Positions 2,681 to 34,072 of a DNA stretch of 64,000 nt are shown piece after piece. How positions within the stretch are numbered: the first letter of the stretch is position 1; each line of letters opens with the position of its first letter. This DNA is from an uncultured bacterium (GTDB lineage Bacteria; Krumholzibacteriota; Krumholzibacteriia; WVZY01; JAKEHA01). The translations under genes were made by a program, and so were the position numbers. The notes below the pieces were generated by a model. That model was not told where the DNA came from, did not search any database, and was given only the letters and a program-made list of their open reading frames with translations. The stretch lies in contig CBDUWU010000001.1 of the NCBI GenBank assembly GCA_965371015.1, positions 1,368 to 65,367 of the forward strand, in the 5' to 3' direction.

Positions 2681-2779
2681 CGGTGTTTGTAATCGTGTGT
2701 CCATCCTGACTGAACGCAGACGCGGCCGATTGGGGTGGACTTTTGGTATCGCTACAGGTCAGACAAAATGAGGAGAAAC

Positions 2780-3529
2780 ATGACTGACTCGTCACCCAGA
2801 ATCATGATCGAAGCGAAGGGGCTGTCGAAGTATTACGGCCCGTTCGTCGCGATCAAGGATATTACTTTTTCCATACCGGAGGGGCAGATCGTCGCGTTTC
2901 TGGGGCCCAACGGGGCTGGCAAGTCCACCACCATGAAAATCCTCAGCGGTTATCTCGCCCAGAGCGAGGGCAGCGCGAAGATCGCCGGTTTCGACGTCAC
3001 CAACCGGCGCCTCGATGCGGCCAGACACCTCGGGTACCTGCCCGAGAACGGCCCTCTATACAATGACATGACGCCGTCGGAATTGCTGAAATTCTTCGGC
3101 GAGGCCCGCGGACTTGCCGACGACCGTCTCGCCGGGAGGCTCGCCATCGTTGCCGAGCAGTGCGCTATCCGGGACGTGTGGGAAAAGCCGATCGGCAAGC
3201 TCTCGCGGGGGTACCGGCAGCGCGTCGGCCTGGCGCAGGCGCTCCTGCACGACCCCGACGTGCTGATAATGGACGAGCCCACCGCCGGTCTCGACCCCAA
3301 CCAGATCCGCGATTTCCGTAAGAACATCAGGGCCCTCGCCGTCTCCAAGACCATTCTGATTTCGACGCATATCCTTCAGGAGGTCGATGCGGTGGCGGAC
3401 CGGCTGCTGCTCGTGCACGACGGCTCGCTGCTCTTTGACGGGACACCCGACGATTTGATGGAATCGGGGTCGCTGGAAGAACCTTTCTACCGCCTCACAC
3501 ATACTGTCGAGGGGGGTGATGGGCGATGA
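2780..3529 (+). CDS. ABC transporter ATP-binding protein, GldA-like (ABC-2 type)
   Basis: Walker A GPNGAGKSTTMKIL, signature LSRGYRQRVGLAQAL, Walker B LIMDEPTAGLD; AGGAGA RBS 5 nt before ATG at 2780; stop overlaps next gene start. Confidence 0.85.
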   Translation: MTDSSPRIMIEAKGLSKYYGPFVAIKDITFSIPEGQIVAFLGPNGAGKSTTMKILSGYLAQSEGSAKIAGFDVTNRRLDAARHLGYLPENGPLYNDMTPSELLKFFGEARGLADDRLAGRLAIVAEQCAIRDVWEKPIGKLSRGYRQRVGLAQALLHDPDVLIMDEPTAGLDPNQIRDFRKNIRALAVSKTILISTHILQEVDAVADRLLLVHDGSLLFDGTPDDLMESGSLEEPFYRLTHTVEGGDGR

Positions 3530-6174
3530 AGATCAACTGGACCATCATCAAGGCGATTTCACGACGCGACCTGAGACTGTATTTCAGTAATCCCACCGGA
3601 TACGTATTTATAACGCTGTTCATCTTCCTGAGCGCGGCGGCGGCGTTCTGGCGCGAACGCTTTTTTTTGAACAACCTCGCCAACCTGGACCAGTTAAACG
3701 ATGTATTTCCCTTTCTGCTCCTGTTTTTTATCCCCGCCATTACGATGGGGGTCTGGGCGGACGAACGGCGACAGGGAACCGACGAGTTGTTACTCACGTT
3801 GCCCGCGACGAATCTGGAAGTGGTCCTCGGCAAGTATTTCTCCACGCTGGGTATTTATACGGCGGCCGTGCTGCTGTCTCTGAGCCACCTCGTGGTCCTC
3901 TTCTGGCTGGGCAAGCCCGACCTGGGGTTGATGTTGTCCAACTACATGGGATACTGGCTCATCGGCGCGGCGTTCATTTCGATCGGGATGCTGGCGTCGC
4001 TGTTGAGTTTCAATGCGACCGTGGCGTTCATTCTTGGGGCGATATTCTGTGCCGGACTCGTTTACATAGAGCCGATACTCGGCGTGTTCGGCAGAGACGC
4101 CGAGTCGATGGTCTCCAGTATCGCCGTATTTCCGCACCTCGATGACCTGACCAGGGGCGTCGTCAGCCTGAGCGCGGTCGTTTATTTTCTTTCGATTACC
4201 GGTTTGCTGCTGTATCTCAACGTGGTTCTGCTGGGACGGCGGCACTGGCCACAGGAGACGGGCAGACTTCGGATGGGTGCCCACCAGTCGGTCCGGGTGC
4301 TGGCGCTGGTCGTTGCGCTCATCGCGTTCAATACCCTTCTCGGGCGGGGAAGCGTCCGCGTCGACATGACCGCGGAGCGCCTCCACACGCTGTCCAGCGA
4401 AACCCGCACGCTGATCTCGGAGATCTCCGTCGACAGGCCCGTGTTCGTGCAGGCTTATATCAGCCCGGAAGTCCCGCGCAACTATGTACAGGCGCGGCGT
4501 GACCTCGTCGACTACCTCAAGGACATCGCCGCCGTCGGTGGAGACCGGGTGAAGCTGGTGATACACGACGTGGAGCCGTACAGTGAAGAGGCGAGAGAAG
4601 CGAGGGACAAGTTTGGAATCATGGCGATGGAGGTTCCGGGAATCGAAGGCAGCCGGGCGAACGTCTCGACCGTCTTCATGGGCGTGGCCTTCACGTGTGG
4701 AGCAGAAGAGGATATCATTCCGTTCTTCGACCGCGGCCTGCCCGTCGAATACGAGTTGGCGCGAAGCATACGGGTCGTCGCCCGGACGCAACGCAAACGG
4801 ATCGGCGTTGTGACGACGCAAGCCAATATTTTCGGCGGATTCGATTTCAACACTTTTGCCAGCAAGCCGGTGTGGTCCGTGGTAGAAGAGCTGGAGAAGC
4901 AGTACGAAGTACTGCAGATAACGGCGGCCGATTCGATGACTGAGACCCTGGACGGTCTGCTCGTCGCGCTTCCGTCGTCGCTATCCCAGGAAGAACTGGA
5001 CAATCTCCAGTCCTTCATCGAACTCGGCATGCCGACGCTGTTGCTGGTCGACCCGTTGCCCATCGTCGAGATCGGCCTCTCGCCCTCGGAGGACGCGGGG
5101 GCAAACGTCAACCCGTTCATGCGTAACCGGGGGCCGCAGCCCAAGCCGAAAGGCGACATTCAGGTTTTTCTGCAGAACCTGGGTGTTGGCTGGAACAAGG
5201 CCCAGATCATCTGGGACGCTTACAACCCCCACCCCGACCTCGCGAACGTTCGGCCCGAGATTGCGTTTATCGGCAGGGGAAACAAGAATCCCGACTCGTT
5301 CAACGACGGCTTTCCCGCCGTGGCCGGGTTGCAGGAGCTGGTGCTTCTGTTCCCGGGCACGGTGAACAAGACGCAGTCGCCCGATTTCACGTTCGAGCCG
5401 TTGGTCAGGACGAGCAAGGTGTCGGGCACGCTGCACTATAACCAGGTCGTGCAACGGTCGTTCTTTGGTGTGGGGCTGGCGCCGGGCAATATCCCGCACT
5501 ACCCGACCGGCGGTGATTACGTGCTCGCCGCCCGCGTTCACAGCGCGTCGGCCGAAGAAGGGGGAATCCATGTAATCGTCCTTGCCGATCTGGATTTCAT
5601 CTCGGAGCAGTTCTTCGAGATTCGCAAACGGGGAATCGAAAATCTCAATTTCGACAACATATCGTTTTTCCTCAATTGTATCGACGTCCTCGTCGGCGAC
5701 GACTCGTTCATCGCGCTCCGCAACCGCCGTGTCAAGCACCGCACGCTGACCACGGTGGAGGAAAAAGTCAGGGCATTCGCGGAGATACGTGCCGTCGAGG
5801 AACAGCAGGCCGAGATGGAAGCGCAGCGTGCGCTGTCTCAGGCCCAGCAACGGCTCGACAAGAATGTCGCCGAGGTAAGGATGCGCGATGATCTCGACGA
5901 GCAGACGAAGAGCATCATGGCGAGGAACCTGCAGGAGGTCGAGAACCGGCGTCTGGAGGCGGCCAAGTCGTCGATCGAATCAGAGCGAAACGTAAAGATC
6001 GAACGCAGCGAGGAAGCCATGGAAACACAGGTACGCGCGATACAGAGCAATATCAAGACGCTCGCCGGATTGCTTCCGCCAATCCCCGTGTTTGCGCTGG
6101 GCGTGCTGATTTTTCTCAAACGGCGGCGCCGCGAAAAAGAGGGCGCGGCAGCGGCAAGAAGGTTGAGGAGTTAG
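3526..6174 (+). CDS. fused ABC-2 permease (GldF-like, N-terminal ~240 aa, 6 TM) and GldG-like auxiliary domain (C-terminal ~640 aa) with coiled-coil and C-terminal TM anchor
   Basis: N-terminal hydrophobic ABC-2 permease-like region, then a large extracytoplasmic domain of GldG/ABC-type-uncharacterised-transport-system type; C-terminal coiled coil and TM (PPIPVFALGVLIFLKRRRRE). Confidence 0.75.
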   Translation: MKINWTIIKAISRRDLRLYFSNPTGYVFITLFIFLSAAAAFWRERFFLNNLANLDQLNDVFPFLLLFFIPAITMGVWADERRQGTDELLLTLPATNLEVVLGKYFSTLGIYTAAVLLSLSHLVVLFWLGKPDLGLMLSNYMGYWLIGAAFISIGMLASLLSFNATVAFILGAIFCAGLVYIEPILGVFGRDAESMVSSIAVFPHLDDLTRGVVSLSAVVYFLSITGLLLYLNVVLLGRRHWPQETGRLRMGAHQSVRVLALVVALIAFNTLLGRGSVRVDMTAERLHTLSSETRTLISEISVDRPVFVQAYISPEVPRNYVQARRDLVDYLKDIAAVGGDRVKLVIHDVEPYSEEAREARDKFGIMAMEVPGIEGSRANVSTVFMGVAFTCGAEEDIIPFFDRGLPVEYELARSIRVVARTQRKRIGVVTTQANIFGGFDFNTFASKPVWSVVEELEKQYEVLQITAADSMTETLDGLLVALPSSLSQEELDNLQSFIELGMPTLLLVDPLPIVEIGLSPSEDAGANVNPFMRNRGPQPKPKGDIQVFLQNLGVGWNKAQIIWDAYNPHPDLANVRPEIAFIGRGNKNPDSFNDGFPAVAGLQELVLLFPGTVNKTQSPDFTFEPLVRTSKVSGTLHYNQVVQRSFFGVGLAPGNIPHYPTGGDYVLAARVHSASAEEGGIHVIVLADLDFISEQFFEIRKRGIENLNFDNISFFLNCIDVLVGDDSFIALRNRRVKHRTLTTVEEKVRAFAEIRAVEEQQAEMEAQRALSQAQQRLDKNVAEVRMRDDLDEQTKSIMARNLQEVENRRLEAAKSSIESERNVKIERSEEAMETQVRAIQSNIKTLAGLLPPIPVFALGVLIFLKRRRREKEGAAAARRLRS

Positions 6175-6176
6175 CC

Positions 6177-7550
6177 ATGAGCCAGACAAGAATTACAATC
6201 GTGTTTGTCGCCGTCGCAACCGTGCTGGTACTGCTGGCCATCGTGACGGTGCCGAAGCAGGAGATGCCGGACGCGTTCTCCGACCTGGGTGAAGAGTTCT
6301 TTCCGGAGTTTACCGATCCCAACGTGGCCAGGACACTGGAAGTGATCGACTACGACGAAGAGACCGGTTCGGCTATCCCGTTCAAGGTGACGTTCCGGGA
6401 CGGGCGGTGGACGATCCCTTCCCACTACGATTACCCCGCGGACGGGGAAGACCGTCTCGCCCGCACGGCGGCCGGGCTTATCGGCATCGCCAAGGATGAT
6501 TTCCGAACCGACAACCCGGCGGACTTCGCCGCGTGCGGCGTGATCGACCCGCTGGACGAGTCCGTCGTCGAGCTGATCGGCCGCGGCAAGCGGGTGACGA
6601 TCAAGGGTGAAAATGACGTCATTCTTGCCGACCTGATCATCGGTAAATCGTACGAGGATCGCGAGAATTTCCACCTCGTGAGGGTGCCGGGACAAAAACG
6701 GGTTTACGGCTCGCTGCTCGATGTGGATATCTCGACCACTTTCAGCGACTGGATCGAATCGGACCTGTTAAAAGTCGATAAAGATGAGATTCAATCGGTG
6801 AACCTGCAGGACTATTCGATCAACGAAATCACAAAAAAGATCGAAACGCGGGACGATATGCTTTTGATCAAGCAGGACGACGACACCTGGACGGCGACCG
6901 GTATGACGGATAACCAGGAAGTAGACCGATACAAAGCGGACAACTTCCTCAAATCCCTCGATGAGCTGGCGATCGTGGGAGTGCGACCCAAGCCCGAAGG
7001 GCTGAGCGCTACGCTGCAACGAACGAGCGGCCAGGTGCAGATTACCACGAACGACCTGATGTCGCTCCAGAGCAAGGGGTTCTACTTCACCGGTGACGGC
7101 AAGCTGCGCTCGAACGAAGGCGAACTCCAGGCCACGACGTCTCAGGGGGTGAGCTACACGCTGCGGTTCGGAGAGGTGGCGTTCGGAACGGGTATCGACG
7201 TGACCGCCGGTGCGGACACGGAACGAGAGGCCGGGGGGGCGGGCGAAAACCGCTACCTGATGATCACCACGAGTTTCGACGCGGCGATGTTTCCCGAACC
7301 GCCGTTGCCCGAAAACAAGAACTACCTGCAGAAGCCGGACAGCATGTGGACGGCGAACGACCACGGGATGAAAAACATCCAGTCGCGACACGACGAGTGG
7401 GCGCGAAGCCTGGCCGAGGGACGCCGGGTGTCCGACGAACTAAACTCGAGATTCGCGCGCTGGTACTATGTGATTTCCGCCGAAAGTTACGAGAAGATCC
7501 GGCTTACCCGCGCCGATCTCATCAAGGACAAGCCCGAACCCCGCGGCTGA
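6177..7550 (+). CDS. DUF4340-like protein (commonly partnered with GldG-family proteins), N-terminal signal anchor
   Basis: 457 aa; N-terminal TM IVFVAVATVLVLLAIV; starts 3 nt after the GldFG stop; family assignment from memory of typical GldG neighbours. Confidence 0.55.
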   Translation: MSQTRITIVFVAVATVLVLLAIVTVPKQEMPDAFSDLGEEFFPEFTDPNVARTLEVIDYDEETGSAIPFKVTFRDGRWTIPSHYDYPADGEDRLARTAAGLIGIAKDDFRTDNPADFAACGVIDPLDESVVELIGRGKRVTIKGENDVILADLIIGKSYEDRENFHLVRVPGQKRVYGSLLDVDISTTFSDWIESDLLKVDKDEIQSVNLQDYSINEITKKIETRDDMLLIKQDDDTWTATGMTDNQEVDRYKADNFLKSLDELAIVGVRPKPEGLSATLQRTSGQVQITTNDLMSLQSKGFYFTGDGKLRSNEGELQATTSQGVSYTLRFGEVAFGTGIDVTAGADTEREAGGAGENRYLMITTSFDAAMFPEPPLPENKNYLQKPDSMWTANDHGMKNIQSRHDEWARSLAEGRRVSDELNSRFARWYYVISAESYEKIRLTRADLIKDKPEPRG

Positions 7551-11410: not shown

Positions 11411-11692
11411 AGAGATCGTGCTAGACGGGGTGTTAGCGGTACCCTCTTCCCGCAATCCGCTATAGCGGGGTCGAATTCCCTCCCGCGGGCGACCGGGGTC
11501 GATGTTCACGATCGTGGAAGTGGCGTCGATGGTCAGGTCCCGCGCAATGGTCACCCACGAACCCCGTCAGGACCGGAAGGTAGCAGCGGTAACTGGATCT
11601 GATCATGTGATGCGGGGTCACCTGTCCGGAGTTAACCCGCGGTCGTGTCACGGGTCCGGCGTTCAACGGTGGGTGCACGATCTCTTTTTTTT
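11411..11692 (+). ncRNA. ffs: signal recognition particle RNA, large Bacillus-type (~275 nt), with U-tract terminator
   Basis: domain IV motif GTCAGGACCGGAAGGTAGCAGCGGTAA at 11566-11592 (about 20/22 match to bacterial GUCAGGUCCGGAAGGAAGCAGC); 5' AGAGATCGTGC (11411-11421) is exactly complementary to 3' GCACGATCTCT (11675-11685), giving a terminal helix followed by T8; sits immediately upstream of dnaX as in Bacillus. Confidence 0.6.
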
Positions 11693-11716: not shown

Positions 11717-13507
11717 ATGAGCTACGAGGTTCTGGCGAGAAAATGGCGTCCGCTCAAGTTCGACGATGTCGTCGGGCAGGACCACATCACGCGGACGCTC
11801 AAGAAGGCGGTCGAGACGGACCGGGTGTCGCACGCCTACATGCTGGCCGGTCCCAGGGGCTGCGGCAAGACCAGCACGGCGCGCATCCTCGCCCGGGTGA
11901 TCAACTGCGAAACGCCGCCCGGAGATGGCAACCCCTGTAACGAATGTCCGTCCTGCATCGGCGTCATCCGGGGCAACAACCTCGACGTGATGGAAATCGA
12001 CGGTGCCTCCCACACTGGCGTCAGCGAAGTCCGCGACCTGCAGGAGAGCATCGGTTACGTCCCCAGCCAGTCCCGTAACAAGATCTACATCATCGACGAA
12101 GTCCACATGCTGTCGACGCACGCGTTCAACGCGCTCTTGAAGACGCTGGAAGAACCCCCGAATCACGTCTATTTTATTTTCGCCACCACTGCGCCCAACA
12201 AGATACCCGACACGATCAAGTCCCGTTGTCAGCGGCATCACTTCAAGCGAATGGAAATAAAAGAGATAGCCGGGCAACTAAAAAAGATCTGCGACGAGGA
12301 GGGGGTGGCAAGCGACGAAGAGGGGTTGAGACTCCTCGCCCGCAAGGCGGACGGCAGCATGAGGGACGGAACGAGTCTGCTCGATCAGTGCATCACGTCG
12401 TCGGACGGAAACATCACGACCGAATCGGTTCGAGACATCCTGGGACTGATCGACCAGGAGACGGTGTTCGCGTTCATGAGGAGTATCGCGGACGGCGATT
12501 CGACCGGGGCCCTTCGGCATTTGAGCGCGTGCATCGACGAGGGACTCGACGTCCAGGAGCTGTGCGCGGCGCTGTTGGAAGGGTACCGGGACCTGATGCT
12601 GCTGGCCACCCCGGGTGATCTCAGCGACCTGCTCTTTCGCTCCCGGGATGAAATCGAATTGATGCGCGAAATGCTTTCGGTCTACGAGTTGCCGGATCTG
12701 GTTACGATCGTGGAACGGTTGTGCGATGCTGTACCCCGGCTCAAATCGGCTGCCGATCCGAGGATTCAGCTGGAGAGCTTCCTCGTCGATCTTTCGCTGC
12801 TCGACCGACAGGTAGATATCCGCCGGCTCATCACGGACCTCGAGTCGCCCACAGGGGGCAAGGCCCCCGCAGGGGAAGGGGGTGCCGTCACGGGAACAGC
12901 TTCGCCGGCGGCGAGATCACCACGGCCGGGCTCGACAAAAAGAGATGCCTCCCCGGGGGGCGACGCGGGAAGACGGGGAAATGGTGGAGTGGAGCGAGCC
13001 GACGACGGAGAAACGGCGGGGACGGCCACTGTGATGACGCGGGACGAAGGCGCCGGAGCATTCCCGGCAAAAGATGAAAACGTCGCGTCGACGGGAGAAT
13101 TATCTCTGGATACGCACAAGATGCTGGAGCTGTGGGACGGATTCGTTTCGTTCGTCCGGCAGAAGAAGCTCCGCCTGGGCGTGAGCCTGATCTCGGGGAA
13201 GATACACTCGTTCGACGGAGCGACCTTGACGCTGCGCTTTGCCCGCAGTTTCGGTCCGCAAAAGGAACAGGTGATGAAACCGGAGAGCATGGAATATCTG
13301 CGGCGCATGCTGGCGAAGTATTTCGGGCGGGAGATCGACGTGGTGTGTTTCCAGGAAGGCGAGGAACGCGAAGCCCGGCTGGACCAGAAGGTAAGGACCG
13401 CGAAGGCGCCGACCGACCGCCTCCGTGGTATTGCGGAAGAGAAAAAACCGCTGGTGAAGAAGTTGCTCGACGAGTTCGACGGCGAAATCATCCGGTACAA
13501 CCCATGA
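11717..13507 (+). CDS. dnaX: DNA polymerase III subunits gamma/tau
   Basis: MSYEVLARKWRP..., Walker A GPRGCGKTSTARI, zinc module CNECPSCIG, IIDEVHMLS; C-terminal Pro/Gly-rich tau-like extension. Confidence 0.9.
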   Translation: MSYEVLARKWRPLKFDDVVGQDHITRTLKKAVETDRVSHAYMLAGPRGCGKTSTARILARVINCETPPGDGNPCNECPSCIGVIRGNNLDVMEIDGASHTGVSEVRDLQESIGYVPSQSRNKIYIIDEVHMLSTHAFNALLKTLEEPPNHVYFIFATTAPNKIPDTIKSRCQRHHFKRMEIKEIAGQLKKICDEEGVASDEEGLRLLARKADGSMRDGTSLLDQCITSSDGNITTESVRDILGLIDQETVFAFMRSIADGDSTGALRHLSACIDEGLDVQELCAALLEGYRDLMLLATPGDLSDLLFRSRDEIELMREMLSVYELPDLVTIVERLCDAVPRLKSAADPRIQLESFLVDLSLLDRQVDIRRLITDLESPTGGKAPAGEGGAVTGTASPAARSPRPGSTKRDASPGGDAGRRGNGGVERADDGETAGTATVMTRDEGAGAFPAKDENVASTGELSLDTHKMLELWDGFVSFVRQKKLRLGVSLISGKIHSFDGATLTLRFARSFGPQKEQVMKPESMEYLRRMLAKYFGREIDVVCFQEGEEREARLDQKVRTAKAPTDRLRGIAEEKKPLVKKLLDEFDGEIIRYNP

Positions 13508-13518: not shown

Positions 13519-13830
13519 ATGGCGAACATTGGAAAGATGATGAAGCAGGCCCAGGAGATGCAGGCCAAGATGGCCCAGCTGCAGGAAGAGCTGGCGAAGA
13601 CTGAGTTCGAGGTCTCGAGCGGCGGCGGAATGGTGACGGTCCGGATGAACGGTCAGCAGGAAATGCTGTCGCTCAAGATCGAGGATGAGGTATTCGCCGA
13701 CGGCGACAAGGAAATGCTGGAAGACCTGATCGTCGCCGCGGTCAGCGAGGCTCGCCAGAAAGCCGCCGAGTTGGCCCAGGAGCAGATGTCCTCACTCACC
13801 GGCGGCATGAATATCCCCGGTCTTTTTTAA
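13519..13830 (+). CDS. ybaB: nucleoid-associated protein YbaB/EbfC
   Basis: 103 aa, MKQAQEMQAKMAQLQEEL...GGMNIPGLF typical YbaB. Confidence 0.9.
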   Translation: MANIGKMMKQAQEMQAKMAQLQEELAKTEFEVSSGGGMVTVRMNGQQEMLSLKIEDEVFADGDKEMLEDLIVAAVSEARQKAAELAQEQMSSLTGGMNIPGLF

Positions 13831-13950
13831 TCACAGACCCGACGTTGAATTTGGATGGGCAGGCCGACGTAATAAGAGCCGGAGGCCCCCGGTGCCGACG
13901 CCAGCAGTCGAGGCGCGGCGGCGGTTATGTCTATAAGAGAAGGAGAGAGA

Positions 13951-14550
13951 ATGGATTACGGATCCGAGACGCTGGGGGCGCTGGTCAAGGCGCTATCGAG
14001 GTTGCCTGGGATCGGTTCCAAAACGGCCCAGCGGCTCGCCCTGTTTCTGCTCAGGGGCAAAAACGAAGAGGCCGAAACCCTCGGACACCTTCTGGCGATC
14101 CTCAAGGACAAGGTCCGGTTCTGTGACACCTGTGGCAGTATTACCGAGATCCAGGAATGTGCAATTTGCACGAATCCCGCCCGGAATCAGGAGCTGATCT
14201 GCGTCGTGGAGGAACCCCAGGACGTGCTAACTATCGAAAAAACAGGACAATACAGAGGGCTTTACCACGTTCTCCACGGTGTGTTGTCTCCGATCGACGG
14301 AGTCACCCCGGATAAGCTCGGCTTCAAGGCCCTGGAGGGGCGCGTACGGGCGGGTGAGGTCAAGGAAGTCATTGTCGCTACGAATCCTACTGTTGAAGGG
14401 GACACGACGGCGCTTTACATCGCAAAATCCCTCGTGTCCGCCCCCTGCACTGTCACGAGACTTGCTAGAGGTCTCCCAATGGGCGGAACCCTCGAATTCG
14501 CCGACGATTTAACCTTGGTGAAAGCGATCGAGCGCAGGGAAAAGCTGTAG
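13951..14550 (+). CDS. recR: recombination protein RecR
   Basis: HhH LPGIGSKTAQRLA, C4 zinc finger CDTCGSITE...CAIC, Toprim domain; GGAGAGAG RBS before ATG 13951. Confidence 0.9.
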   Translation: MDYGSETLGALVKALSRLPGIGSKTAQRLALFLLRGKNEEAETLGHLLAILKDKVRFCDTCGSITEIQECAICTNPARNQELICVVEEPQDVLTIEKTGQYRGLYHVLHGVLSPIDGVTPDKLGFKALEGRVRAGEVKEVIVATNPTVEGDTTALYIAKSLVSAPCTVTRLARGLPMGGTLEFADDLTLVKAIERREKL

Positions 14551-14625
14551 CCGCAGCGAACCGTGCTTCGGCGCGTGTCGTGCCCTGTGCGACAACCGGT
14601 ACCGGATTCGGACTGGAGCGAGTGT

Positions 14626-15123
14626 ATGATAAAGGCTGACTGGACAATTTACGAAGAAGACTACTGGGCCATAAACAGTGTCCTCAAAGAACTCATCGAC
14701 AATTCCAATTCCCAGAGCGTGCTGCTGATAGACAAAACCGGGCAGCTCATCGCCAGCGTAGGCATGGAGCCCGAGTTTGATCTCATGAGCTTCGCCTCGC
14801 TGTGTGCGGCGGATTTCGAAGCCAATGCGCAACTGGCTAATTTGATCGGTGAAAAAGATTTTTCTACGCTGTACCACCAGGGCTCCGACGAGAGCATGTA
14901 CCTGTCAAGAGTGGCGCAGGCGATTATTCTTGTCGTGCTGTTCAACAAGCGTACGACTCTCGGTCTGGTCCGGCTGCGCGTCAAAAAAGCGGTCGAAGGA
15001 CTCAACACGATACTCAACGGTCTTTTCGATAAACTCGAATACGAAAACGAAGACCTCAAGGAATTCGACGCCGAATTTGCCGACGAGCTGAACAAAGAAA
15101 TCGATTCACTTTTCCAGGACTGA
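14626..15123 (+). CDS. mglB: Roadblock/LC7 domain protein, MglB-like GTPase-activating protein
   Basis: ~165 aa Roadblock-type sequence ([16 protein letters not shown]...) directly upstream of and co-oriented with mglA. Confidence 0.7.
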
Positions 15124-15139
15124 CGCAGGGAGCCGGTGC

Positions 15140-15724
15140 ATGTCGCTCATCAATTACTCGTCGCGTGAAATCAACTGCAAGATCGTGTACTACGGCGCTG
15201 GTTTGTGCGGCAAGACCACGAACATCCAGCACGTTTACAACAAGGTCGATCCCGGAACCAAGGGCAAGCTGATCACGCTGGCCACAGAGATGGACCGCAC
15301 GCTGTTCTTTGACTTTCTCCCGCTCGAACTGGGTACCGTCAAGGGATTCAAGACCCGGTTCCACCTCTACACCGTGCCCGGCCAGGTGTACTACGACGCG
15401 TCGCGCAAGCTCATCCTGCGCGGGGTCGACGGTATCGTATTCGTCGCCGACTCGCAGACCGCGCGCTTCGACGCCAATATCGAGAGCCTGTACAACCTCC
15501 ACGACAACCTCGATGAGTACAAGCTCAAGATCGAGGACATACCGTTCGTCATCCAGTACAACAAACGGGACATGCCGGACATCATCACCATGGAAGACCT
15601 CGAGCAGGAGCTCAATCCCGAAGGGTACCCCAGTTACGAGGCCGTGGCCGTCCAGGGCGACGGTGTGTTCGACACGCTCAAGGCCGTGGCCAAAGGCGTT
15701 CTCAAAAAACTTTCCCAGAACTGA
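15140..15724 (+). CDS. mglA: Ras-like small GTPase MglA
   Basis: [16 protein letters not shown]-loop, DTAG-equivalent TVPGQ, NKRD G4 motif; 194 aa. Confidence 0.85.
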
Positions 15725-15760
15725 CCCCCCACCCGCCTCTCCGACAAAAACAGGTTGAGT

Positions 15761-15787
15761 ATCCGCCCCCGGGCGGATATTTTCTTT
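15761..15787 (+). terminator. rho-independent terminator after mglA
   Basis: ATCCGCCC-CC-GGGCGGAT hairpin followed by ATTTTCTTT. Confidence 0.5.
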
Positions 15788-15828: not shown

Positions 15829-16344
15829 TTGCCCCCTATCGCTCACCCTCCCCGGGAGGCATGCTTGGACTTCTTCGTCCGGTTGATCGGCACGTTCGGG
15901 TACACCGGCTTCTTTCCGGTCGGTCCCGCGACGTTTGCATCGCTCGTATTCGTCCTGATCTACGCGTTCGTGCCCGGCGGCGAGGTCGTGGCGCACCCGA
16001 TCGTCTGCGTGGTCACGCTGGTCGTTTCGATCCCGGTGTCGACGAGGATGGAGAAATTCTACGGAAAGGACCCCGGGTGTGTCGTGATCGACGAGATCGT
16101 GGGTATGCAGGCCGTGCTCGTGGGCGCTTCCGGCGTGGGGCTGTGGGGGTTGGTGGCCGCCTTCGCGTTGTTCCGCGTCTTCGACATCGCCAAGCCTTTT
16201 CCCGCGGGCCGCTCTCAGCACCTGCCGGGCGGGTGGGGAATCGTCATCGACGACGTCGTGGCCGGTATCTACGCGCGCATATCCGTGATCCTGTTGTCCC
16301 TTTTGATCCCGTCGCTGGGCGGGTTCGTGCCCTGGGGCGGTTGA
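15829..16344 (+). CDS. pgpA: phosphatidylglycerophosphatase A
   Basis: FVRLIGTFGYTGFFPVGPATFASL aligns with E. coli PgpA LLAVGFGSGLSPIVPGTMGSL; C-terminal GGWGIVIDDVVAGIYA matches GGMGIMIDDIVAGV; exact start uncertain. Confidence 0.7.
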   Translation: MPPIAHPPREACLDFFVRLIGTFGYTGFFPVGPATFASLVFVLIYAFVPGGEVVAHPIVCVVTLVVSIPVSTRMEKFYGKDPGCVVIDEIVGMQAVLVGASGVGLWGLVAAFALFRVFDIAKPFPAGRSQHLPGGWGIVIDDVVAGIYARISVILLSLLIPSLGGFVPWGG

Positions 16345-22892: not shown

Positions 22893-24395
22893 ATGTTTCG
22901 CTTTACGATTTTGATCATCACCGCCGCCGTGTTTGTTTCGGCAGCCGTGGCGCCACTCGCCGCGCAGCGGTCGCGGGACCGCTCGACGACGGCGAGCCGC
23001 AAAGCCGACACCGACGCCGAAGAGCTCATAGACCAGCAGCAGGATCTGCTCGAGCAGCAGGCCGCGCGGCTGCAGCCGGAGGGACTCGACGCACCGGTCG
23101 ACCCGGACACCTACGTGATTGGACCGGGCGACCAGTTCATTCTGGTACTGCGCGGTCAGGATCGGCGTGAGCTGAAGCTCCAGGTGCTGCCGGAGGGCAC
23201 GATCCTGCTTCCTAACTACGGCGCATTTATGGTGGCGGGAATGACGATCACCGAACTGCGAAACCGGCTCGGCGAATCATTGAAGAAATATTACAAAAAC
23301 ATCGAGTTCGACCTGCAGCTGGTTGTGCCCAGGGCGTTCGTCGTTTACGTTCTCGGCGAAGTGGAGATTCCGGGCGCGGTCCGTCTGCATGCGCCCTTTC
23401 GGGTGAGCTCGGCCATCGAAGCGGCCGGCGGCGTCAAGCGCAGGGGAAGCCGCCGGTTCATCGAAATCGTGGAAGACGGCGAGGCCGTTCGCCTGGTCGA
23501 CCTGGTCTCGTTTCTCAGCCTGGGGGACATCGAGGCCAATCCCGCGCTGAAAGAAAAGCAATCCGTTTATGTGCCGCCGATGCAGGCGTTCGCCCAGATC
23601 CACGGCGAAGTGTGGAACCGGGGTCCCTACGAGGTCAGGCCCGGAGAGACCATTGCCGACGTGATCCGCCTGGCTGGCGGGACGACGAGTTTTGCCGATC
23701 TCGACCGTGTCATCCTCGAGCGTCACAGCCCGACCGGATGGGCATCGATCGAACACTATACCTCGGCGGACCTCGACACCGTCGTCGTCGTCGACCGCGA
23801 CCAGATCGTGATACCCGACGCGCGTACGTTCGGCAGCGGCGACTACGTGCTCATCAGTGGCGGTGGGGGACGCGAGGGGAAGGTCTATATCGAAGAGGGG
23901 GAGACCATCGCCGATTTCACGCCGCGATTCTACCGGCTCATGGAAAATCACGACATCAGCCGCGCCGTCATTGAGCGGAGTTCGGATGACGGCACAGTCG
24001 AATACATAAAAGTCGATCTCGAGAAGGTCATCTCGGGCGAGGCGGACGGAAACATACTCCTCGAGGACCGGGACATCATCAGCATACCGAAGGCGGAATA
24101 TTTTGTGTACGTTGCCGGTGAGGTGACCGATCCGGGAGCGATCCCGTTTCAACGCGGCATGCCGGCGGAACGGTATATCGCCATGGCCGGCGGGCCGTCC
24201 CGCAACGGGAGTATGAACAAGCTGACAATTTTTGGCAAAGAAGGCACCAGCCGCAGCGGAGATCGCAACAGCACCGTTTACCGGGGTGACACGATTCTGC
24301 TCGAGCGAACCCTGACCAGCTACGTGGGACCAATATTCATCGGGCTGACCTCTCTCACAAGTCTGGTTCTTTCGGTTATCGCGGTGTCGAGGTAG
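22893..24395 (+). CDS. polysaccharide export protein, Wza/KpsD-like (Poly_export + SLBB domains) with C-terminal TM
   Basis: signal peptide; DTYVIGPGDQFILVL Poly_export motif; repeated beta-grasp SLBB-like segments; C-terminal hydrophobic helix. Confidence 0.75.
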   Translation: MFRFTILIITAAVFVSAAVAPLAAQRSRDRSTTASRKADTDAEELIDQQQDLLEQQAARLQPEGLDAPVDPDTYVIGPGDQFILVLRGQDRRELKLQVLPEGTILLPNYGAFMVAGMTITELRNRLGESLKKYYKNIEFDLQLVVPRAFVVYVLGEVEIPGAVRLHAPFRVSSAIEAAGGVKRRGSRRFIEIVEDGEAVRLVDLVSFLSLGDIEANPALKEKQSVYVPPMQAFAQIHGEVWNRGPYEVRPGETIADVIRLAGGTTSFADLDRVILERHSPTGWASIEHYTSADLDTVVVVDRDQIVIPDARTFGSGDYVLISGGGGREGKVYIEEGETIADFTPRFYRLMENHDISRAVIERSSDDGTVEYIKVDLEKVISGEADGNILLEDRDIISIPKAEYFVYVAGEVTDPGAIPFQRGMPAERYIAMAGGPSRNGSMNKLTIFGKEGTSRSGDRNSTVYRGDTILLERTLTSYVGPIFIGLTSLTSLVLSVIAVSR

Positions 24396-24423
24396 CATCA
24401 ACGAAGAAGGGATGTGATCGGTC

Positions 24424-25491
24424 ATCAAAGCGCTGATACTGGCAGGGGGTAAGGGCACCCGGCTGCGCCCGATCACGCACACGAGCGCCAAGCAGCTCGT
24501 ACCGGTGGCGAACAAACCGATACTGTTCTACGGCATCGAGGCGATACGCGACGCGGGAATCTCCGACATCGGTATCGTCGTCGGAGACACGGCACCGGAG
24601 GTAATGGACGCCGTCGGCGACGGATCCCGTTTCGGAGTCAGGGTGAAATACATACCACAGGAAGCACCGCTGGGATTGGCGCACGCAGTCAAGATATCGC
24701 GGGATTTCTTACTGGAAGATCCATTCGTCATGTATCTCGGCGACAACCTGCTCAGCGGCGGCATCAAGAGTTTTGTCGAGGACTTCGACCGGGGCGACTA
24801 CGACTCGCAGATCCTGCTGGCCCGGGTCAAGAACCCCAACGAATTCGGCGTCGCCGAGCTCGACGGAGGCCGTGTAGTCGGGTTGGAAGAAAAGCCCAAA
24901 AAGCCGAAGAGCGACTACGCGCTGGTCGGTGTGTACATGTTCACTTCCCGGATCTTCGAAGCGACCGCGAAAATCAAACCGAGCTGGCGCAACGAACTCG
25001 AAATCACCGACGCCATTCAATATTTGATCGACCAGAACTACGTCGTCAATTCACACGTCGTCGAGGGGTGGTGGAAGGATACCGGAAAGCTCGAAGACAT
25101 GCTCGACGCCAATCGTATGATTCTCACGGCGGCGCGGGCGACCAAGGTGGAGAGCGAGCAGTTCGAGGATTCGGAGTTTCACGGGCAGGTGCAGCTCGAC
25201 GAAGGGGTCACGGTGAAGAGGAGCGTGCTGCGCGGTCCCTGTATTGTCGGCGCCGGTTCGACAATCGTCGATTCGTACGTAGGGCCGTTCACCAGCGTCG
25301 GTCCCAGGACGCGAATCGAGAGCAGCGAGATCGAAAACAGTATCGTGATGGAAAACTGCACGATCACCGATATCAGCAGCCGCATCGGAGGAAGCCTGAT
25401 AGGAAAGAATGTAACGATCAATCGTTGCGTAAAGCCGCCGCGTAACTACGGTTTTATGGTCGGGGACAACAGCGAGATTACCGTCCTGTGA
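24424..25491 (+). CDS. sugar-1-phosphate nucleotidylyltransferase, long-form RmlA-like with C-terminal left-handed beta-helix; canonical start codon missing
   Basis: homology (KALILAGGKGTRLRPITHTSAKQLVPVANKP) begins at 24427, upstream of the first ATG (24505); in-frame TGA at 24415 leaves only ATC/CTG as possible starts; RBS GAAGGG at 24406. Confidence 0.65.
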   Translation: MKALILAGGKGTRLRPITHTSAKQLVPVANKPILFYGIEAIRDAGISDIGIVVGDTAPEVMDAVGDGSRFGVRVKYIPQEAPLGLAHAVKISRDFLLEDPFVMYLGDNLLSGGIKSFVEDFDRGDYDSQILLARVKNPNEFGVAELDGGRVVGLEEKPKKPKSDYALVGVYMFTSRIFEATAKIKPSWRNELEITDAIQYLIDQNYVVNSHVVEGWWKDTGKLEDMLDANRMILTAARATKVESEQFEDSEFHGQVQLDEGVTVKRSVLRGPCIVGAGSTIVDSYVGPFTSVGPRTRIESSEIENSIVMENCTITDISSRIGGSLIGKNVTINRCVKPPRNYGFMVGDNSEITVL

Positions 25492-25499
25492 GGTGAAGC

Positions 25500-26099
25500 T
25501 TGAACAGTATCGAAGACATTGACCTCAAAGCGCTCATCCTGTCGCGAAAGCGGCTGCTGGATTTCCTGAGCGAGGACGGCGCCGGGAATATCCGCGCCAT
25601 TGCGGCTGCGATGGCCCGGTGCCTCGACGATGGCGGCACCATATATGCCTGCGGCAACGGGGGGAGCGCGTCCCAGGCCGAGCATTTTTCCGCCGAACTG
25701 GTCGGGAGATTCTACCAGGACCGGCGCTCGCTGCCCGTTTACTCGCTGGCGGAAAACGGCGCCGTGTTGAGTTCGTTGGCCAACGACTATTCGTTCGAAC
25801 ACGTTTTTGCCCACCAGATTGCTGGTGTGGGCAGCGAGGGCGACTGCCTGCTCGCCCTGTCGACGAGCGGTAACTCCGAGAACGTCGTTCGGGCCTGCCG
25901 GGAGGCGAAGAAAAAAGGTATGCACGTTTTTTCGCTCACCGGTGAGGGGGGCGGTCGTGTCGCTCCCGAATCCGACATCGTCATCGCGGTTCCCGACACC
26001 GACACCGCAAGCGTCCAGGAGATTCACCTCCTCGTCGTCCACCTCATCTGCCAGCTGGTCGAGACGGCACTGTTTCGCGCGAAGGATGGAAAGCAGTAA
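25500..26099 (+). CDS. gmhA: D-sedoheptulose-7-phosphate isomerase (SIS domain)
   Basis: 199 aa; CGNGGSASQAEHF, ALSTSGNSENV SIS motifs typical of GmhA. Confidence 0.8.
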   Translation: MNSIEDIDLKALILSRKRLLDFLSEDGAGNIRAIAAAMARCLDDGGTIYACGNGGSASQAEHFSAELVGRFYQDRRSLPVYSLAENGAVLSSLANDYSFEHVFAHQIAGVGSEGDCLLALSTSGNSENVVRACREAKKKGMHVFSLTGEGGGRVAPESDIVIAVPDTDTASVQEIHLLVVHLICQLVETALFRAKDGKQ

Positions 26100-27234
26100 A
26101 CGCCCCAGATTGCTGTATCTCGTAACAGAGGACTGGTACTTCTGCTCGCACCGGCTCGCCCTCGGCCGTGCTGCCGTGCGGGCCGGTTACGACGTGACGG
26201 TCGCCACCCGTGTCCACAAGCACGCGCCGGCTATTACCGAAGCTGGAATGAACGTCGTGGCCCTGCCATGGAGCCGCCGGTCGACCCTCCCCTGGAACGA
26301 GCTCCGCACGCTGGCCTCGCTGTACAAACTTTACAGGAATTTCCGACCCGACCTGGTGCACCACGTTGCGCTCAAGCCGGTGTTCTACGGCTCGATGATT
26401 GCGCGAATCGCCCGCACCAGGCGGGTGATAAACGCCGTCGCCGGATTCGGATACAGCTTTGTCGCCTCCGGGGCGCGGGCGGCCTTGGCGCGCGGGATCC
26501 TCGACACGACTTTCCGGGTCCTCTGCAACCGTCCAGGCGCAAGAGTGCTGGTCCAGAACCCCGACGACGAGCGCGTTCTCGTGGAAGACGGCACGGTCGC
26601 CGCCGGCCGGGTGGTGGTCATCCCGGGGTCGGGGGTGGACACGGACCGGTTCGCGCCGGCCCCGGATGGTATGCCGGACGGCAGGGTGCGGGTTACGCTG
26701 GTGTCGCGCATGTTATGGTCGAAGGGAGTTGGCGAGTTCGTCGATGCGGCGCGGATCCTGCGCCGCCGGGGAATAGATTTCGAAGCGGTGCTCGTTGGAA
26801 GCCCGGATCCGGAAAACCCGCAGGCGATTCCGGAGGAAACGTTGCGGGGCTGGCGCGACGAAGGTGTCGTGGGCTGGCTTGGACACGTCGACGACGTTCC
26901 CTCGGTATGGGCCCGCTCGCACGTCGCCGTCCTTCCCAGTCACCGCGAGGGGTTGCCCAGAACACTCCTCGAAGCGGCCGCCTGCGGTGTGCCGATGGTC
27001 GCCACGGACGTCCCCGGTTGCCGTGAGGTCGTCGTCGACGACCGCAGCGGATTACTCGTGCCGGCGCGGGACGCTTCCGCCCTGGCCGACGCGATCGAAC
27101 GGCTCATATCAGAGCCCGCAACGCGGCGGGAGATGGGCCGGGCGGCTAGAGCCGATGCGGTAGAAAAATTCTCGGAGCCGGTCGTGATCGAAAAAATGCT
27201 GGCACTTTACCGCTCGATGCTGGAGGACGCGTGA
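26086..27234 (+). CDS. glycosyltransferase GT4 family
   Basis: PSHREGLPRTLLEAAACGVPMVATDVPGCREVVVDDRSGLLV (EX7E region); 383 aa; overlaps gmhA stop by 14 nt. Confidence 0.8.
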   Translation: MESSKRPRLLYLVTEDWYFCSHRLALGRAAVRAGYDVTVATRVHKHAPAITEAGMNVVALPWSRRSTLPWNELRTLASLYKLYRNFRPDLVHHVALKPVFYGSMIARIARTRRVINAVAGFGYSFVASGARAALARGILDTTFRVLCNRPGARVLVQNPDDERVLVEDGTVAAGRVVVIPGSGVDTDRFAPAPDGMPDGRVRVTLVSRMLWSKGVGEFVDAARILRRRGIDFEAVLVGSPDPENPQAIPEETLRGWRDEGVVGWLGHVDDVPSVWARSHVAVLPSHREGLPRTLLEAAACGVPMVATDVPGCREVVVDDRSGLLVPARDASALADAIERLISEPATRREMGRAARADAVEKFSEPVVIEKMLALYRSMLEDA

Positions 27235-28241
27235 ATGACGCCGCGGTCAAAACTAGTTTCTATGTCACCGGGGCATCCGGTTTTCTCGGCCGCCGTGTCT
27301 GCTCGAGGCTGGCGGCGCACGGGACGGTGCGGGCACTGATGAGGTCGGCGGTCGACGGGCCGTGGGACGCCGTCGACATGGTCGACCTGGCCAAAGACCC
27401 ACCACCGCCGGGCGCGCTCGCGGGCGTCGAAACCGTCATCCATCTGGCAGCACGCACGCACGCGGTCGATGAATCCGGCGATACCGAGGGACTGTACCGC
27501 GCTATCAACGTGGACGGCACCCGCCGCCTGCTCGAGGCCGCGAAGAGCGCCGGGGTCCGCCGATTCGTGTTTGTCAGCAGCGTCAAGGCGATGGGTGAGG
27601 GCGGGGACGGGGTGCAGGACGAGACGGCGACGCCGGTTCCCGCGACCTGGTACGGAAAGACCAAGCGCGCCGCCGAGACGATGGTGATGGACGGCTCCTG
27701 GCCCCACGAGGCCGTCGTGCTGAGGCCGGCATTGATGTACGGGAAAGGAGTGGCCGGGAACGTGGGACGGATGATCGAAGCGGTGCGGGCCGGGCGGTTT
27801 CCGCCGGTACCCGAGGTGGGCAATTCGCGCTCGATGGTTCATGGCGACGACGCGGCCCACGCCATCGTTCTCGCGGCGACCGGCGCGCGCGCCGCCGGCC
27901 GGTTGTTCATCGTAACCGATGGCCGGCCGTGTTCGACGCGGGAGATGTACGAATGGATATGCAAGGCGCTGGGGCAGACACCGCGGAGGCGGACACCGCC
28001 TCTGTCGATGTATCGCGGCCTGGCGAAAGTGGGCGACGTTCTGGGACGGCTCCGGGGCAGGCGCTGGATATTCGATTCGGAAGCGTTTGGCAAGCTCTTC
28101 GGGTCGGCCGCCTACGATTCGTCGGCGATCTGCCGCGAACTGGGTTTCGAGCCGAAGTGGACGTTCCGGACGGCTTTGCCGGAAATGGTTTCGGGCGCGA
28201 CGGAATCCGCTGCGACGGATTCTGCGGGACAAAGGGGGTAA
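27231..28241 (+). CDS. NAD-dependent epimerase/dehydratase (SDR family)
   Basis: VTGASGFLGRRV Rossmann motif, YGKTK catalytic Y-x3-K. Confidence 0.8.
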   Translation: MNDAAVKTSFYVTGASGFLGRRVCSRLAAHGTVRALMRSAVDGPWDAVDMVDLAKDPPPPGALAGVETVIHLAARTHAVDESGDTEGLYRAINVDGTRRLLEAAKSAGVRRFVFVSSVKAMGEGGDGVQDETATPVPATWYGKTKRAAETMVMDGSWPHEAVVLRPALMYGKGVAGNVGRMIEAVRAGRFPPVPEVGNSRSMVHGDDAAHAIVLAATGARAAGRLFIVTDGRPCSTREMYEWICKALGQTPRRRTPPLSMYRGLAKVGDVLGRLRGRRWIFDSEAFGKLFGSAAYDSSAICRELGFEPKWTFRTALPEMVSGATESAATDSAGQRG

Positions 28242-28247
28242 CCGGAA

Positions 28248-30149: not shown

Positions 30150-30239
30150 GGCCGGTTGTGGTCCGTGCCGCCTCCGGAGAGTGATTTATTTTCTTGTCTT
30201 ACCGGCTGTGTCTACATATCCTGAAACATCCTCTGACGA

Positions 30240-30260
30240 CGCGGGAATACCGCGGGAATA
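30240..30260 (+). repeat. tandem direct repeat CGCGGGAATA(c)CGCGGGAATA upstream of the phosphotransferase fusion gene
   Basis: two 10-bp units spaced by 1 nt, 26 nt upstream of the GTG start at 30286. Confidence 0.5.
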
Positions 30261-30285
30261 TTAATGAAACCGAGGGACTGACGAC

Positions 30286-33123: not shown

Positions 33124-34013
33124 AACAGTTCTTCTTTGTACTTCAGTCGATGCGGCCCGGCCAGTGGACCAAAAACCTCGTGGTGTTTGCCGGACTCGTC
33201 TTCTCGCAAAACCTTTTTGATCGCCAGCTCGCCGCCAAGAGCGTCGAAGCTTTTGTCGTGTTCTGCCTGTTGTCGGGGATGATCTATCTCGTCAACGACA
33301 TAGCCGATATCGAGCGTGACAAGCTCCACGCCCGCAAGAAGCACCGTGCGCTGCCCTCCGGGCGCCTCAAACTATCGACGGCGGTGGTTGCGTCGATCGT
33401 CGGAACACTGGCCGGCCTCTATCTCGCCTGGCTGGTTGGGCGCGAGTTTTTTGTCGTCGCCGTCGTGTTCTTTGCGTTGAACATGCTATACTCGTTCGTC
33501 ATCAAGCGTATTGTGCTTCTCGACGTGATGAGCATTTCGATCAGTTTCATACTGCGCGCGATCGGGGGAGTGGAAGCCCTGCGCAGTCTGGAGCCGTCGA
33601 TCGAGATATCGCCTTGGCTCTTGATCTGCACCCTGTTCCTTTCCCTGTTTCTCGGGTTCTGCAAACGACGGCACGAGCTGGTCACCCTGTCCAACGCCCA
33701 CCAGCACCGGCGGTCTCTGCGGGAATATTCGCCGGCGCTGCTCGACCAACTCGTTGGAATCACCGCAGGCGGGTCAGTGCTCGCGTACGCGATATACACA
33801 ATCTGGCCCGACACCGTGGACAATTTCGGCTCGACGGACCTGGTTTATACAGTGCCGCTGGTTCTGCTCGGCGTCATGCGCTACCTTTACCTGGTCTACA
33901 CCCAGCAGAAGGGCGGAAGCCCCTCCGAGCTCCTCCTCCACGAGAAATTCCTGCTGGTCACGGTTGTCACGTGGGGCGCTCTGGTGATTGTGTTGTTGGG
34001 TGGATTCAGGTAA
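33120..34013 (+). CDS. UbiA-family prenyltransferase, decaprenyl-phosphate phosphoribosyltransferase (DPPR synthase)-like
   Basis: RPGQWTKNLVVFAGLVFS and YLVNDIADIERDKLHARKKHRALPSG resemble Rv3806c-type DPPR synthases (from memory); 8-9 TM helices. Confidence 0.7.
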   Translation: MKQFFFVLQSMRPGQWTKNLVVFAGLVFSQNLFDRQLAAKSVEAFVVFCLLSGMIYLVNDIADIERDKLHARKKHRALPSGRLKLSTAVVASIVGTLAGLYLAWLVGREFFVVAVVFFALNMLYSFVIKRIVLLDVMSISISFILRAIGGVEALRSLEPSIEISPWLLICTLFLSLFLGFCKRRHELVTLSNAHQHRRSLREYSPALLDQLVGITAGGSVLAYAIYTIWPDTVDNFGSTDLVYTVPLVLLGVMRYLYLVYTQQKGGSPSELLLHEKFLLVTVVTWGALVIVLLGGFR

Positions 34014-34021
34014 AATCATCA

Positions 34022-34038: not shown

Positions 34039-34072
34039 ATTCACACCATCTTGTAAACGAGCGAGGAGATCA

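Follow-up and report, generated by a model that had tools for sequence, protein, structure and literature searches.

A stretch of 64,000 nucleotides from an uncultured bacterium of the lineage Candidatus Krumholzibacteriota (below: the window) carries, directly behind recR, the two genes mglB and mglA, which correspond to the polarity module of Myxococcus xanthus. We regard it as likely that they constitute a canonical switch consisting of the GTPase MglA and MglB as its GTPase-activating protein (GAP), possibly also acting as guanine nucleotide exchange factor (GEF), that expression is linked to recR, and that the output is a polar machine, most plausibly type IV pili. An earlier note on this DNA had recognised an MglB-MglA module, and both open reading frames (ORFs) lie where it had placed them. 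All positions are given in window numbering:

14626-15123, + strand: mglB, 165 amino acids (aa), ATG start, GGAG 7 nucleotides (nt) upstream
15140-15724, + strand: mglA, 194 aa, GGAG 7 nt upstream, beginning 16 nt after the mglB stop

A longer version of mglB beginning at a GTG (14563) is disfavoured: every orthologue is 165-168 aa long and aligns from its Met1, and an exact-sequence look-up found the identical 165-aa product as public protein P0001, on a 65-kb contig. The antisense ORF at 14661-15095 is a by-product of the mglB coding frame. The look-up gave no match for the window MglA; the public annotation of MglB relatives includes "roadblock/LC7 domain-containing protein".

In a sequence search of the Protein Data Bank (PDB), the window MglA aligned along its entire length with the solved M. 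xanthus MglA (E-value 2e-86) and matched the MglA of Thermus thermophilus with 2e-76; the next-best matches after the MglA structures were Arf-like proteins with about 1e-4. The BLASTP alignment with M. xanthus MglA contains 133 identities in 191 positions (70%) and zero gaps. Group-1 MglA proteins are defined by an arginine beside the G2 threonine and by the G3 motif TVPGQ (PMC4316618). Residue conservation was counted in an alignment of 77 MglA orthologues from related genomes. The P-loop, which the earlier note had given correctly as GAGLCGKTT, reads G19-A-G-L-C-G-K25-T26; G19, G21, G24, K25, and T26 are kept in 76 of the 77 sequences, the remaining one being gapped there. The catalytic arginine and glutamine, which were to be checked, are both present: the arginine finger with the G2 threonine (D52-R53-T54) and the G3 motif T78-V-P-G-Q82, which contains the catalytic Gln82, are found in all 77 orthologues. 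The residue that replaces the aspartate of Ras in G3 is Thr78, not a glycine as had been assumed. Asn, Lys, and Asp of the G4 motif N141-K142-R-D144 are invariant (77/77), and so are F56, F57, and F59 of the β2-screw segment T54-L-F-F-D-F59, in which the conserved L55, F56, F57, and F59 constitute the MglB interface (PMC3199381). K181 and K185 are kept in at least 95% of the orthologues; L64 and V67 (isoleucine in M. xanthus) are conserved as well. All sequence-level hallmarks of group 1 (P-loop, arginine finger, TVPGQ, NKxD, β2 screw, and an adjoining mglB) were found; by its sequence, the second gene is a group-1 MglA with complete catalytic residues.

The product of the first gene matched the Pfam family Robl_LC7 (PF03259) with 6e-10 and 39 bits (cut-off 23), the solved M. 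xanthus MglB with 3e-31 and 41% identity, and T. thermophilus MglB with 4e-11. An AlphaFold2 model computed from 61 homologues (predicted local distance difference test, pLDDT, 88.8) has the topology α-β-β-α-β-β-β-α followed by a long C-terminal helix. A Foldseek comparison with the PDB gave M. xanthus MglB as top matches, with template modelling scores (TMt) of 0.93-0.94 and root mean square deviations (rmsd) of 1.1-1.7; the best 30 matches were all MglB chains (TMt 0.82-0.94, rmsd 1.1-2.0), followed by Asgard Roadblock proteins and Ragulator subunits. The first gene is MglB with, as modelled, a Roadblock fold; the possibility, raised beforehand, that the upstream protein has no such fold is contradicted by the Pfam match, the model, and the Foldseek result alike.

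MglB carries a C-terminal extension of about 30 residues with 13 Asp or Glu among the last 31, which ends in EIDSLFQD and aligns with the helix at the C terminus (Ct-helix) of M. xanthus MglB (...DDDIDNLFS). AlphaFold2 predicts the extension to be helical at lower confidence (pLDDT 60-83); F163 and the consensus EIDxLF recur across the MglB family alignment. The acidic Ct-helix of M. xanthus MglB docks in a basic α5 pocket of MglA (Baranwal 2019, PMC6785124; also PMC13408092), whereas Thermus MglB has no Ct-helix and binds MglA-GTP only (PMC13408092). The window MglB is of the Myxococcus type with Ct-helix, and the coupled MglA keeps the corresponding putative docking pocket K181/K185/L64/V67.

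A scan with MglB, using one genome per species, detected 146 relatives, and the loci of the best 80 of these 146 were analysed. Nearly all are metagenome-assembled genomes (MAGs) labelled Candidatus Krumholzibacteriota or Krumholzibacteriia, or bearing older or looser labels, e.g. Latescibacteria; Krumholzibacteriota is listed by NCBI as a phylum directly under Bacteria. MglB identity among these 80 relatives decreases from 99% to about 61%. Group-1 MglA was reported earlier for Fibrobacteres, Gemmatimonadetes, and many other phyla (PMC4316618); this kind of MglA/MglB is already known, and Krumholzibacteriota is an added phylum. The genes and signals surrounding the pair in the window are:

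11416-11680, + strand: large signal recognition particle (SRP) RNA of the Bacillus type, directly upstream of dnaX (Rfam RF01854, 195 bits, gathering score 60)
about 11717-13507, + strand: dnaX (Pfam DNA_pol3_delta2/gamma3)
13519-13830, + strand: ybaB, named after its syntenic orthologue in L081 (103 aa), which is annotated YbaB_DNA_bd, not by its own profile match
13927-14550, + strand: recR, co-oriented, upstream of mglB (TIGR00615, 238 bits, above cut-off)
14551-14625, + strand: recR-mglB spacer, 75 nt, with the mglB ribosome-binding site GGAG at 14615-14618
15758-15781, + strand: terminator-like hairpin after mglA, GC-rich 10-bp stem with CCCG loop, followed by a UUUUCUUU tract to 15787 (RNA folding)
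15829-16344: pgpA, NCBIfam match below cut-off only; orthologues in related loci carry Pfam PgpA
ending at 17621: cinA, above the cut-off of the cinA_nterm subfamily, slightly short of that of the equivalog

The mechanical ORF start of dnaX, a GTG at 11645, overlaps the SRP RNA; the real start is probably an ATG near 11717 (MSYEVLARKW...).

The position of the pair between recR and pgpA-cinA in a housekeeping block, as described in the earlier note, is more regular than the window alone shows. As far as the contigs reach, all 80 loci have their genes arranged as dnaX-ybaB-recR-mglB-mglA-(variable insert)-pgpA-cinA-thpR-recA-recX-alaS, and in each of them recR adjoins mglB. The same neighbourhood of recR and mglB occurs in the more distant lineages L081-L083, L086, and L091, with a small gene between the two in L091. 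The mglB-mglA spacer, 16 nt in the window, comprises 4-52 nt in all but one relative. Upstream of dnaX, the SRP RNA and three tRNAs give rise to a Bacillus-like scr-dnaX-ybaB-recR arrangement; the Firmicutes-like synteny noted earlier extends up to this large SRP RNA. The lineage itself is Candidatus Krumholzibacteriota.

Outside the clade, the full synteny persists at MglB identities of 55% and 52%. At 44% (L091) the order is recR-(small membrane protein)-mglBA, in another lineage at 55% (L092) it is lplA-mglBA-pgpA-cinA, and at 47% an isolated mglBA pair lies between redoxin and fumarase genes. With the recR linkage lost in this last case, we rejected the idea that it is universal; its piecemeal decay outside the clade agrees with the wide variation published for group-1 mglA neighbourhoods (PMC4316618). 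The small protein of the distant lineages (MglB identity 44-48%) comprises 89-104 aa and is encoded directly upstream of mglB (L091 930-1199, L084 167-481, L085 131-445), in L091 between recR and mglB. Its sequence, as read, suggests a membrane helix at the N terminus and a repeat of the HEAT-like kind, PLRRxAALxYL...LLRxxxAWE; it has no counterpart in the window and is a candidate for a lineage-specific partner.

The sole breakpoint of the 11-gene block lies after mglA, where 17 relatives carry 0.3-8.7 kb of accessory genes, e.g. L004, L006, L007, L010, L013, L021, L028, L040, and L052. The contents of these inserts differ and resemble, upon inspection of the sequences, glycosyltransferases, pyridoxal phosphate (PLP) enzymes, and EamA-type transporters. 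Since the genes are unrelated to each other, we rejected a conserved partner or an extension of the operon and consider the site an insertion hotspot.

The pair is under strong constraint. Across the 80 loci, the median identity to the window is 82% for MglA, 70% for MglB, 69% for RecA, 49% for RecR, and 41% for DnaX; no other protein of the block is as strongly conserved as MglA, which surpasses RecA in 49 of 50 loci. Ratios of nonsynonymous to synonymous substitution rates (dN/dS), which are approximate NG86 values with dS near saturation, were about 0.05 for mglB, about 0.1 for mglA, 0.16 for recA, and 0.23 for recR. Both genes are functional and heavily constrained, and the phylum-wide fixed position, together with a constraint stronger than that of RecA, argues for a central cell-biological rather than an accessory role. 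The base composition of mglB is low although the gene is anciently resident in the clade: its G+C content is 0.50 and that of its third codon positions (GC3) 0.64, compared with 0.57 and 0.84 for mglA; GC3 is 0.81-0.86 for most neighbours and 0.67 for recR.

The recR-mglB spacer folds no more stably than its shuffled versions (z-score -0.53) and has no U-tract. In most relatives it measures 22-75 nt, and only 6 of 81 such spacers contain a terminator-like hairpin. Because the spacing is short and a terminator is missing there, mglBA is probably co-transcribed with recR and would form the tail of a dnaX/ybaB/recR transcript. The earlier note had credited mglBA with a terminator of its own. The hairpin after mglA (15758-15787 including the tract) bears this out, and folding confirmed it, although the automated terminator scan of the window had not listed it; the implied self-contained mglBA unit is at odds with the spacer, whose lack of a terminator points to co-transcription. 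A comparable hairpin with T-tract within at most 120 nt after the mglA stop was found in 15 of 78 loci compared with 10 of 390 shuffles, i.e. it is enriched, not universal. The pair is apparently not obligatorily linked to pgpA-cinA-recA.

In a subclade with recR-mglB spacers of 208-329 nt, the motif TCTGTGCATGCTTCTTGCG occurs once per locus upstream of mglB (L040 9833-9848, L042 9799-9814, L045 7464-7479, L052 9833-9848, L060 9884-9899, L065 9834-9849) and may be a promoter or operator; in the window it is missing even at 3 mismatches. The long spacers of some relatives were also searched for a conserved small ORF, and there was none; only the DNA motif is conserved.

From the conserved residues and from the solved complexes and kinetics of the Myxococcus and Thermus proteins (PMC3199381, PMC6876712, PMC6785124, PMC13408092) we infer the following mechanism. 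MglA would alternate between a GDP and a GTP form. In MglA-GTP, the β2 strand with L55, F56, F57, and F59 would flip out and contact the two-helix face of the MglB dimer, which would act as GAP without contributing a catalytic residue of its own, by orienting Arg53 and Gln82 of MglA. With its acidic Ct-helix, one MglB protomer would occupy the pocket that K181/K185 and L64/V67 form in MglA; by this docking MglB would stay on MglA-GDP and favour the exchange of nucleotides, as has been shown for the M. xanthus protein. MglA-GTP would be excluded where MglB concentrates, which would make the system a spatial switch. In this genome, mglBA would be expressed constitutively by read-through from dnaX-ybaB-recR, and transcription would stop at the hairpin after mglA. 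The output would be the selection of a pole for a polar envelope machine whose effector is presumably encoded outside the window.

Type IV pili appear to be the most plausible target of this switch, because this role is common to the MglA proteins of Myxococcus, Bdellovibrio, and Thermus. Polar pili are also the most economical choice, since each MglA studied has type IV pili and/or Agl-Glt gliding as its target and the latter is rare: Agl-Glt gliding genes occur in only 12 of 1611 genomes, and the marker GltF is confined to Myxococcales and Bdellovibrionales (PMC3441718). As reported in PMC12024867 with reference to Salzer 2015, T. thermophilus still forms pili upon deletion of its mglA/mglB homologues, their localisation at the cell pole being altered.

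Several observations weigh against a canonical switch acting on pili. Essentially every plausible gene of the window was scanned against Pfam, and no RomR/RomX/RomY, MglC, SgmX, Pil, Frz, or Glt partner, no core gene of the gld set, and no further small GTPase or Roadblock protein was detected in the 64 kb. The statement of the earlier note that no frz, pil, or glt genes are nearby holds for the whole window, and the effector, for which it had no candidate, is not encoded there either. The variable inserts adjacent to mglA, as judged from their sequences, and the flanks of the 80 relatives likewise contain no effector or polarity partner. The relatives within Krumholzibacteriota are uncultured; one MAG of the phylum was reported to possess most flagellar and chemotaxis genes, with pili unmentioned (PMC10936416). 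This MAG is the only literature on pili or motility in Krumholzibacteriota that we found, the paper describing the phylum being outside the search. MglB reaches 80.9 bits with the NCBIfam equivalog NF052242 ("GTPase-activating protein MglB"), whose cut-off is 200. The name of this model, GTPaseActivMglBThm, suggests that it is Thermus-specific, so that the low score counts against a Thermus-type equivalence and not against membership in the MglB family.

A further point of this kind concerns the interface. Helix α2 of the window MglB contains Glu65 and Gln69 (residues 65-69 are encoded at 14818-14832) at positions occupied by A64/G68 in M. xanthus and by A68/A72 in T. thermophilus. Introducing arginine at these positions lowered the affinity 10-fold in Thermus and caused a reversal phenotype like that of a mglB deletion in Myxococcus (PMC3199381). 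The whole of this helix is invariant in the clade. Gln69 at first seemed unusual and was rejected as such: glutamine is the commonest residue at the equivalent position (55 of 150 family representatives at 50% identity), which is why small residues at the α2 positions are not a family rule. Only Glu65 is clade-specific; it is present in 80 of 80 clade members and in 10 of the 150 representatives, mostly from this clade. Being clade-invariant and rare elsewhere, Glu65 may cause a different strength of the MglA-MglB interface.

An alternative to a pole-selecting switch for pili is that the position of the genes is itself functional: MglA and MglB would take part in DNA transactions or in the cell cycle, e.g. 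a polar DNA-uptake pilus together with RecR, CinA, RecA, and RecX, or the polarity of replisome or nucleoid, and not locomotion. We consider this improbable. In its favour, mglBA is wedged between dnaX-ybaB-recR and pgpA-cinA-thpR-recA-recX in all 80 loci, one flank survives farther out (recR-x-mglBA in L091, mglBA-pgpA-cinA in L092), and the short, terminator-free recR-mglB spacer suggests a single transcript; moreover, for Thermus mglA/mglB the title of Salzer 2015, as cited in PMC12024867, names natural competence alongside pilus-mediated functions. However, the entire 11-gene block is collinear throughout the phylum, so that the adjacency may be inherited order without functional meaning, and the variable mglA-pgpA inserts, like the terminator present here, disrupt any obligatory unit with cinA-recA. 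Where MglB identity is 47%, the pair lies between redoxin and fumarase genes, group-1 neighbourhoods are variable (PMC4316618), and DNA repair is not among the known MglA functions. About equally doubtful is the more specific proposal that mglBA belongs to the core housekeeping genes of Krumholzibacteriota, co-transcribed with dnaX-ybaB-recR and evolving more slowly than RecA, with an output tied to DNA transactions or the cell cycle and Glu65 as the mark of a retuned affinity.

With comparably small probability, the switch controls another polar organelle, such as the site of a flagellum, a polar adhesin, or a secretion site. The flagellar and chemotaxis genes of the above-mentioned Krumholzibacteriota MAG are compatible with this possibility, as are the single-cell genomes of Latescibacteria, which contain both flagella and pili genes (PMC4454575). 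In addition, MglA and MglB were found in 70 and 60 genomes, whereas RomR was present in 31, Frz in 10, and the gliding genes in 12 (PMC3441718); given this wider spread, the output need not be that of Myxococcus. Against it stands that we found no precedent in the literature for the control of flagella by MglA, and that the experimentally studied MglA proteins all act on type IV pili and/or Agl-Glt gliding.

The earlier note had taken a transporter of the window as a sign of surface motility:

2735-7550, + strand: Gld-like ABC transporter, composed of ABC ATPase, ABC-2 permease fused to a GldG-like ABC_transp_aux domain (882 aa), and DUF4340 protein

It is very unlikely that the module steers gliding of the Bacteroidetes type, i.e. 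Gld with the type IX secretion system, with this transporter being part of it. By NCBIfam, 2735-3529 and 3526-6174 are best named GldA, GldF, and GldG, Pfam ABC_transp_aux is the GldG family, and Latescibacteria, the parent from which Krumholzibacteriota was split off, has been described as belonging to the superphylum Fibrobacteres-Chlorobi-Bacteroidetes (FCB) (PMC4454575). However, each of the three scores misses its equivalog cut-off by a wide margin: 256.5 bits versus 402.6 for GldA (TIGR03522), 128.3 versus 288.5 for GldF (TIGR03518), and 59.4 versus 389.85 for GldG (TIGR03521). The transporter is 7-12 kb away, with unrelated genes and tRNAs in between, and the window contains no gldB, gldD, gldH, gldJ, gldK, gldL, gldM, gldN, or spr gene. 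Our literature search revealed no connection between MglA/MglB and Gld gliding, and we know of none. The transporter is a relative of the Gld family and provides no evidence for gliding. The two proteins encoded upstream of it (1-621, 611-2602) have no Pfam or NCBIfam match.

A reading of the GTPase as a SofG-like, Arf-like, or generic Ras paralogue, with the Roadblock gene as an unrelated neighbour, is already refuted as far as sequence goes and can practically be dismissed: Pfam taken by itself names only Arf, Ras, and Gtr1_RagA and no NCBIfam MglA model fires, but Arf-like structures score 80 orders of magnitude worse than the gap-free, full-length match to M. xanthus MglA, the protein is a single domain whose N terminus cannot extend further within the 16-nt gap to the mglB stop, mglB and mglA stay coupled in all relatives, and the Ct-helix and the MglA pocket are conserved together.

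MglA/MglB is the best-studied bacterial Ras-like polarity switch, with experiments covering only Myxococcus, Bdellovibrio, and Thermus. Here, a whole uncultured phylum keeps a Ct-helix-type pair with complete catalytic residues at one fixed position. The additions to what was known are modest, namely the fixed position behind recR throughout the phylum, a conservation above that of RecA, and a clade-invariant glutamate on the MglB interface helix; as a natural interface variant, MglB with Glu65 lends itself to biochemical comparison. The locus shows no new mechanism, and its immediate value is comparative, the organisms being uncultured.

The remainder of the window holds translation, riboflavin, SMC/FtsY, SelA, and peptidoglycan genes. 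The features assigned are:

22893-35179, + strand: polysaccharide export/biosynthesis cluster with Wza-like Poly_export/SLBB protein, sugar nucleotidyltransferase, SIS protein, glycosyltransferases of family GT4, and epimerase
48186-49610, + strand: SelA, L-seryl-tRNA(Sec) selenium transferase (Pfam)
55937-56062, + strand: flavin mononucleotide (FMN) riboswitch, 117 bits, upstream of ribD (56235-57404), ribE, ribBA, and ribH, then nusB

Also in the polysaccharide cluster are an asparagine synthase-like protein, a fusion of a WecA-type GT4 with an epimerase domain, UbiA, and DUF362; another GT4 and an LPG_synthase_TM protein are located at 61.5-63.9 kb. SelA makes it probable that selenocysteine is used by the organism; a search of the window with ARAGORN gave no tRNA-Sec.

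Among the known systems, MglA/MglB of M. xanthus (MXAN_1925/MXAN_1926; PDB 6IZW, 6H5B, 5YMX, 6HJM) is likewise encoded in the order mglB, mglA. The similarity comprises the gap-free MglA with all catalytic and β2-screw residues (70% identity), the Roadblock fold of MglB (41%), the Asp/Glu-rich C-terminal helix ending in I-D-x-L-F, and the MglA pocket K181/K185/L64/(I/V)67. In contrast, A64/G68 of M. xanthus are replaced by Glu65/Gln69, the DDD triplet (150-152) reads N-K-E in the window, and Lys14 of the basic tract is Ala15. The window contains none of the RomR/RomX/RomY/MglC/Frz/Agl-Glt genes, and its pair is embedded after recR instead of standing alone, in a host from an uncultured, non-myxobacterial phylum.

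The proteins of T. thermophilus (PDB 3T12, 3T1Q, 1J3W) differ in that MglB, with an identity of about 30%, has no Ct-helix and binds MglA-GTP only (PMC13408092), whereas the window MglB is of the Ct-helix type. They share the group-1 MglA with intrinsic arginine finger, a Roadblock MglB dimer as GAP, and a non-myxobacterial host without Frz, and the best functional analogy is offered by their role in the polar localisation of pili. Bdellovibrio is not known to possess an MglB, and a catalytic position of its MglA is changed; in contrast, the window keeps MglB and a seemingly fully catalytic MglA. The MglA of Bdellovibrio bacteriovorus is also a group-1 protein and works on type IV pili at one pole of an organism that lacks Frz-driven reversals (PMC3983030; PMC4316618). 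SofG, the second group-1 GTPase of M. xanthus, has the arginine finger and a G3 motif of the TVPGQ type (PMC4316618), but is not encoded beside an mglB, whereas the window protein is coupled to mglB and collinear with MglA from end to end. The eukaryotic Roadblock/Longin platforms (Ragulator-Rag, MP1-p14) and the Asgard Roadblock proteins have only 18-20% identity, other partners, and another cellular context; the MglB model matches their folds (Foldseek 1e-8 to 1e-7, TM 0.8-0.9), and a dimeric platform that regulates a small GTPase is the logic common to both.

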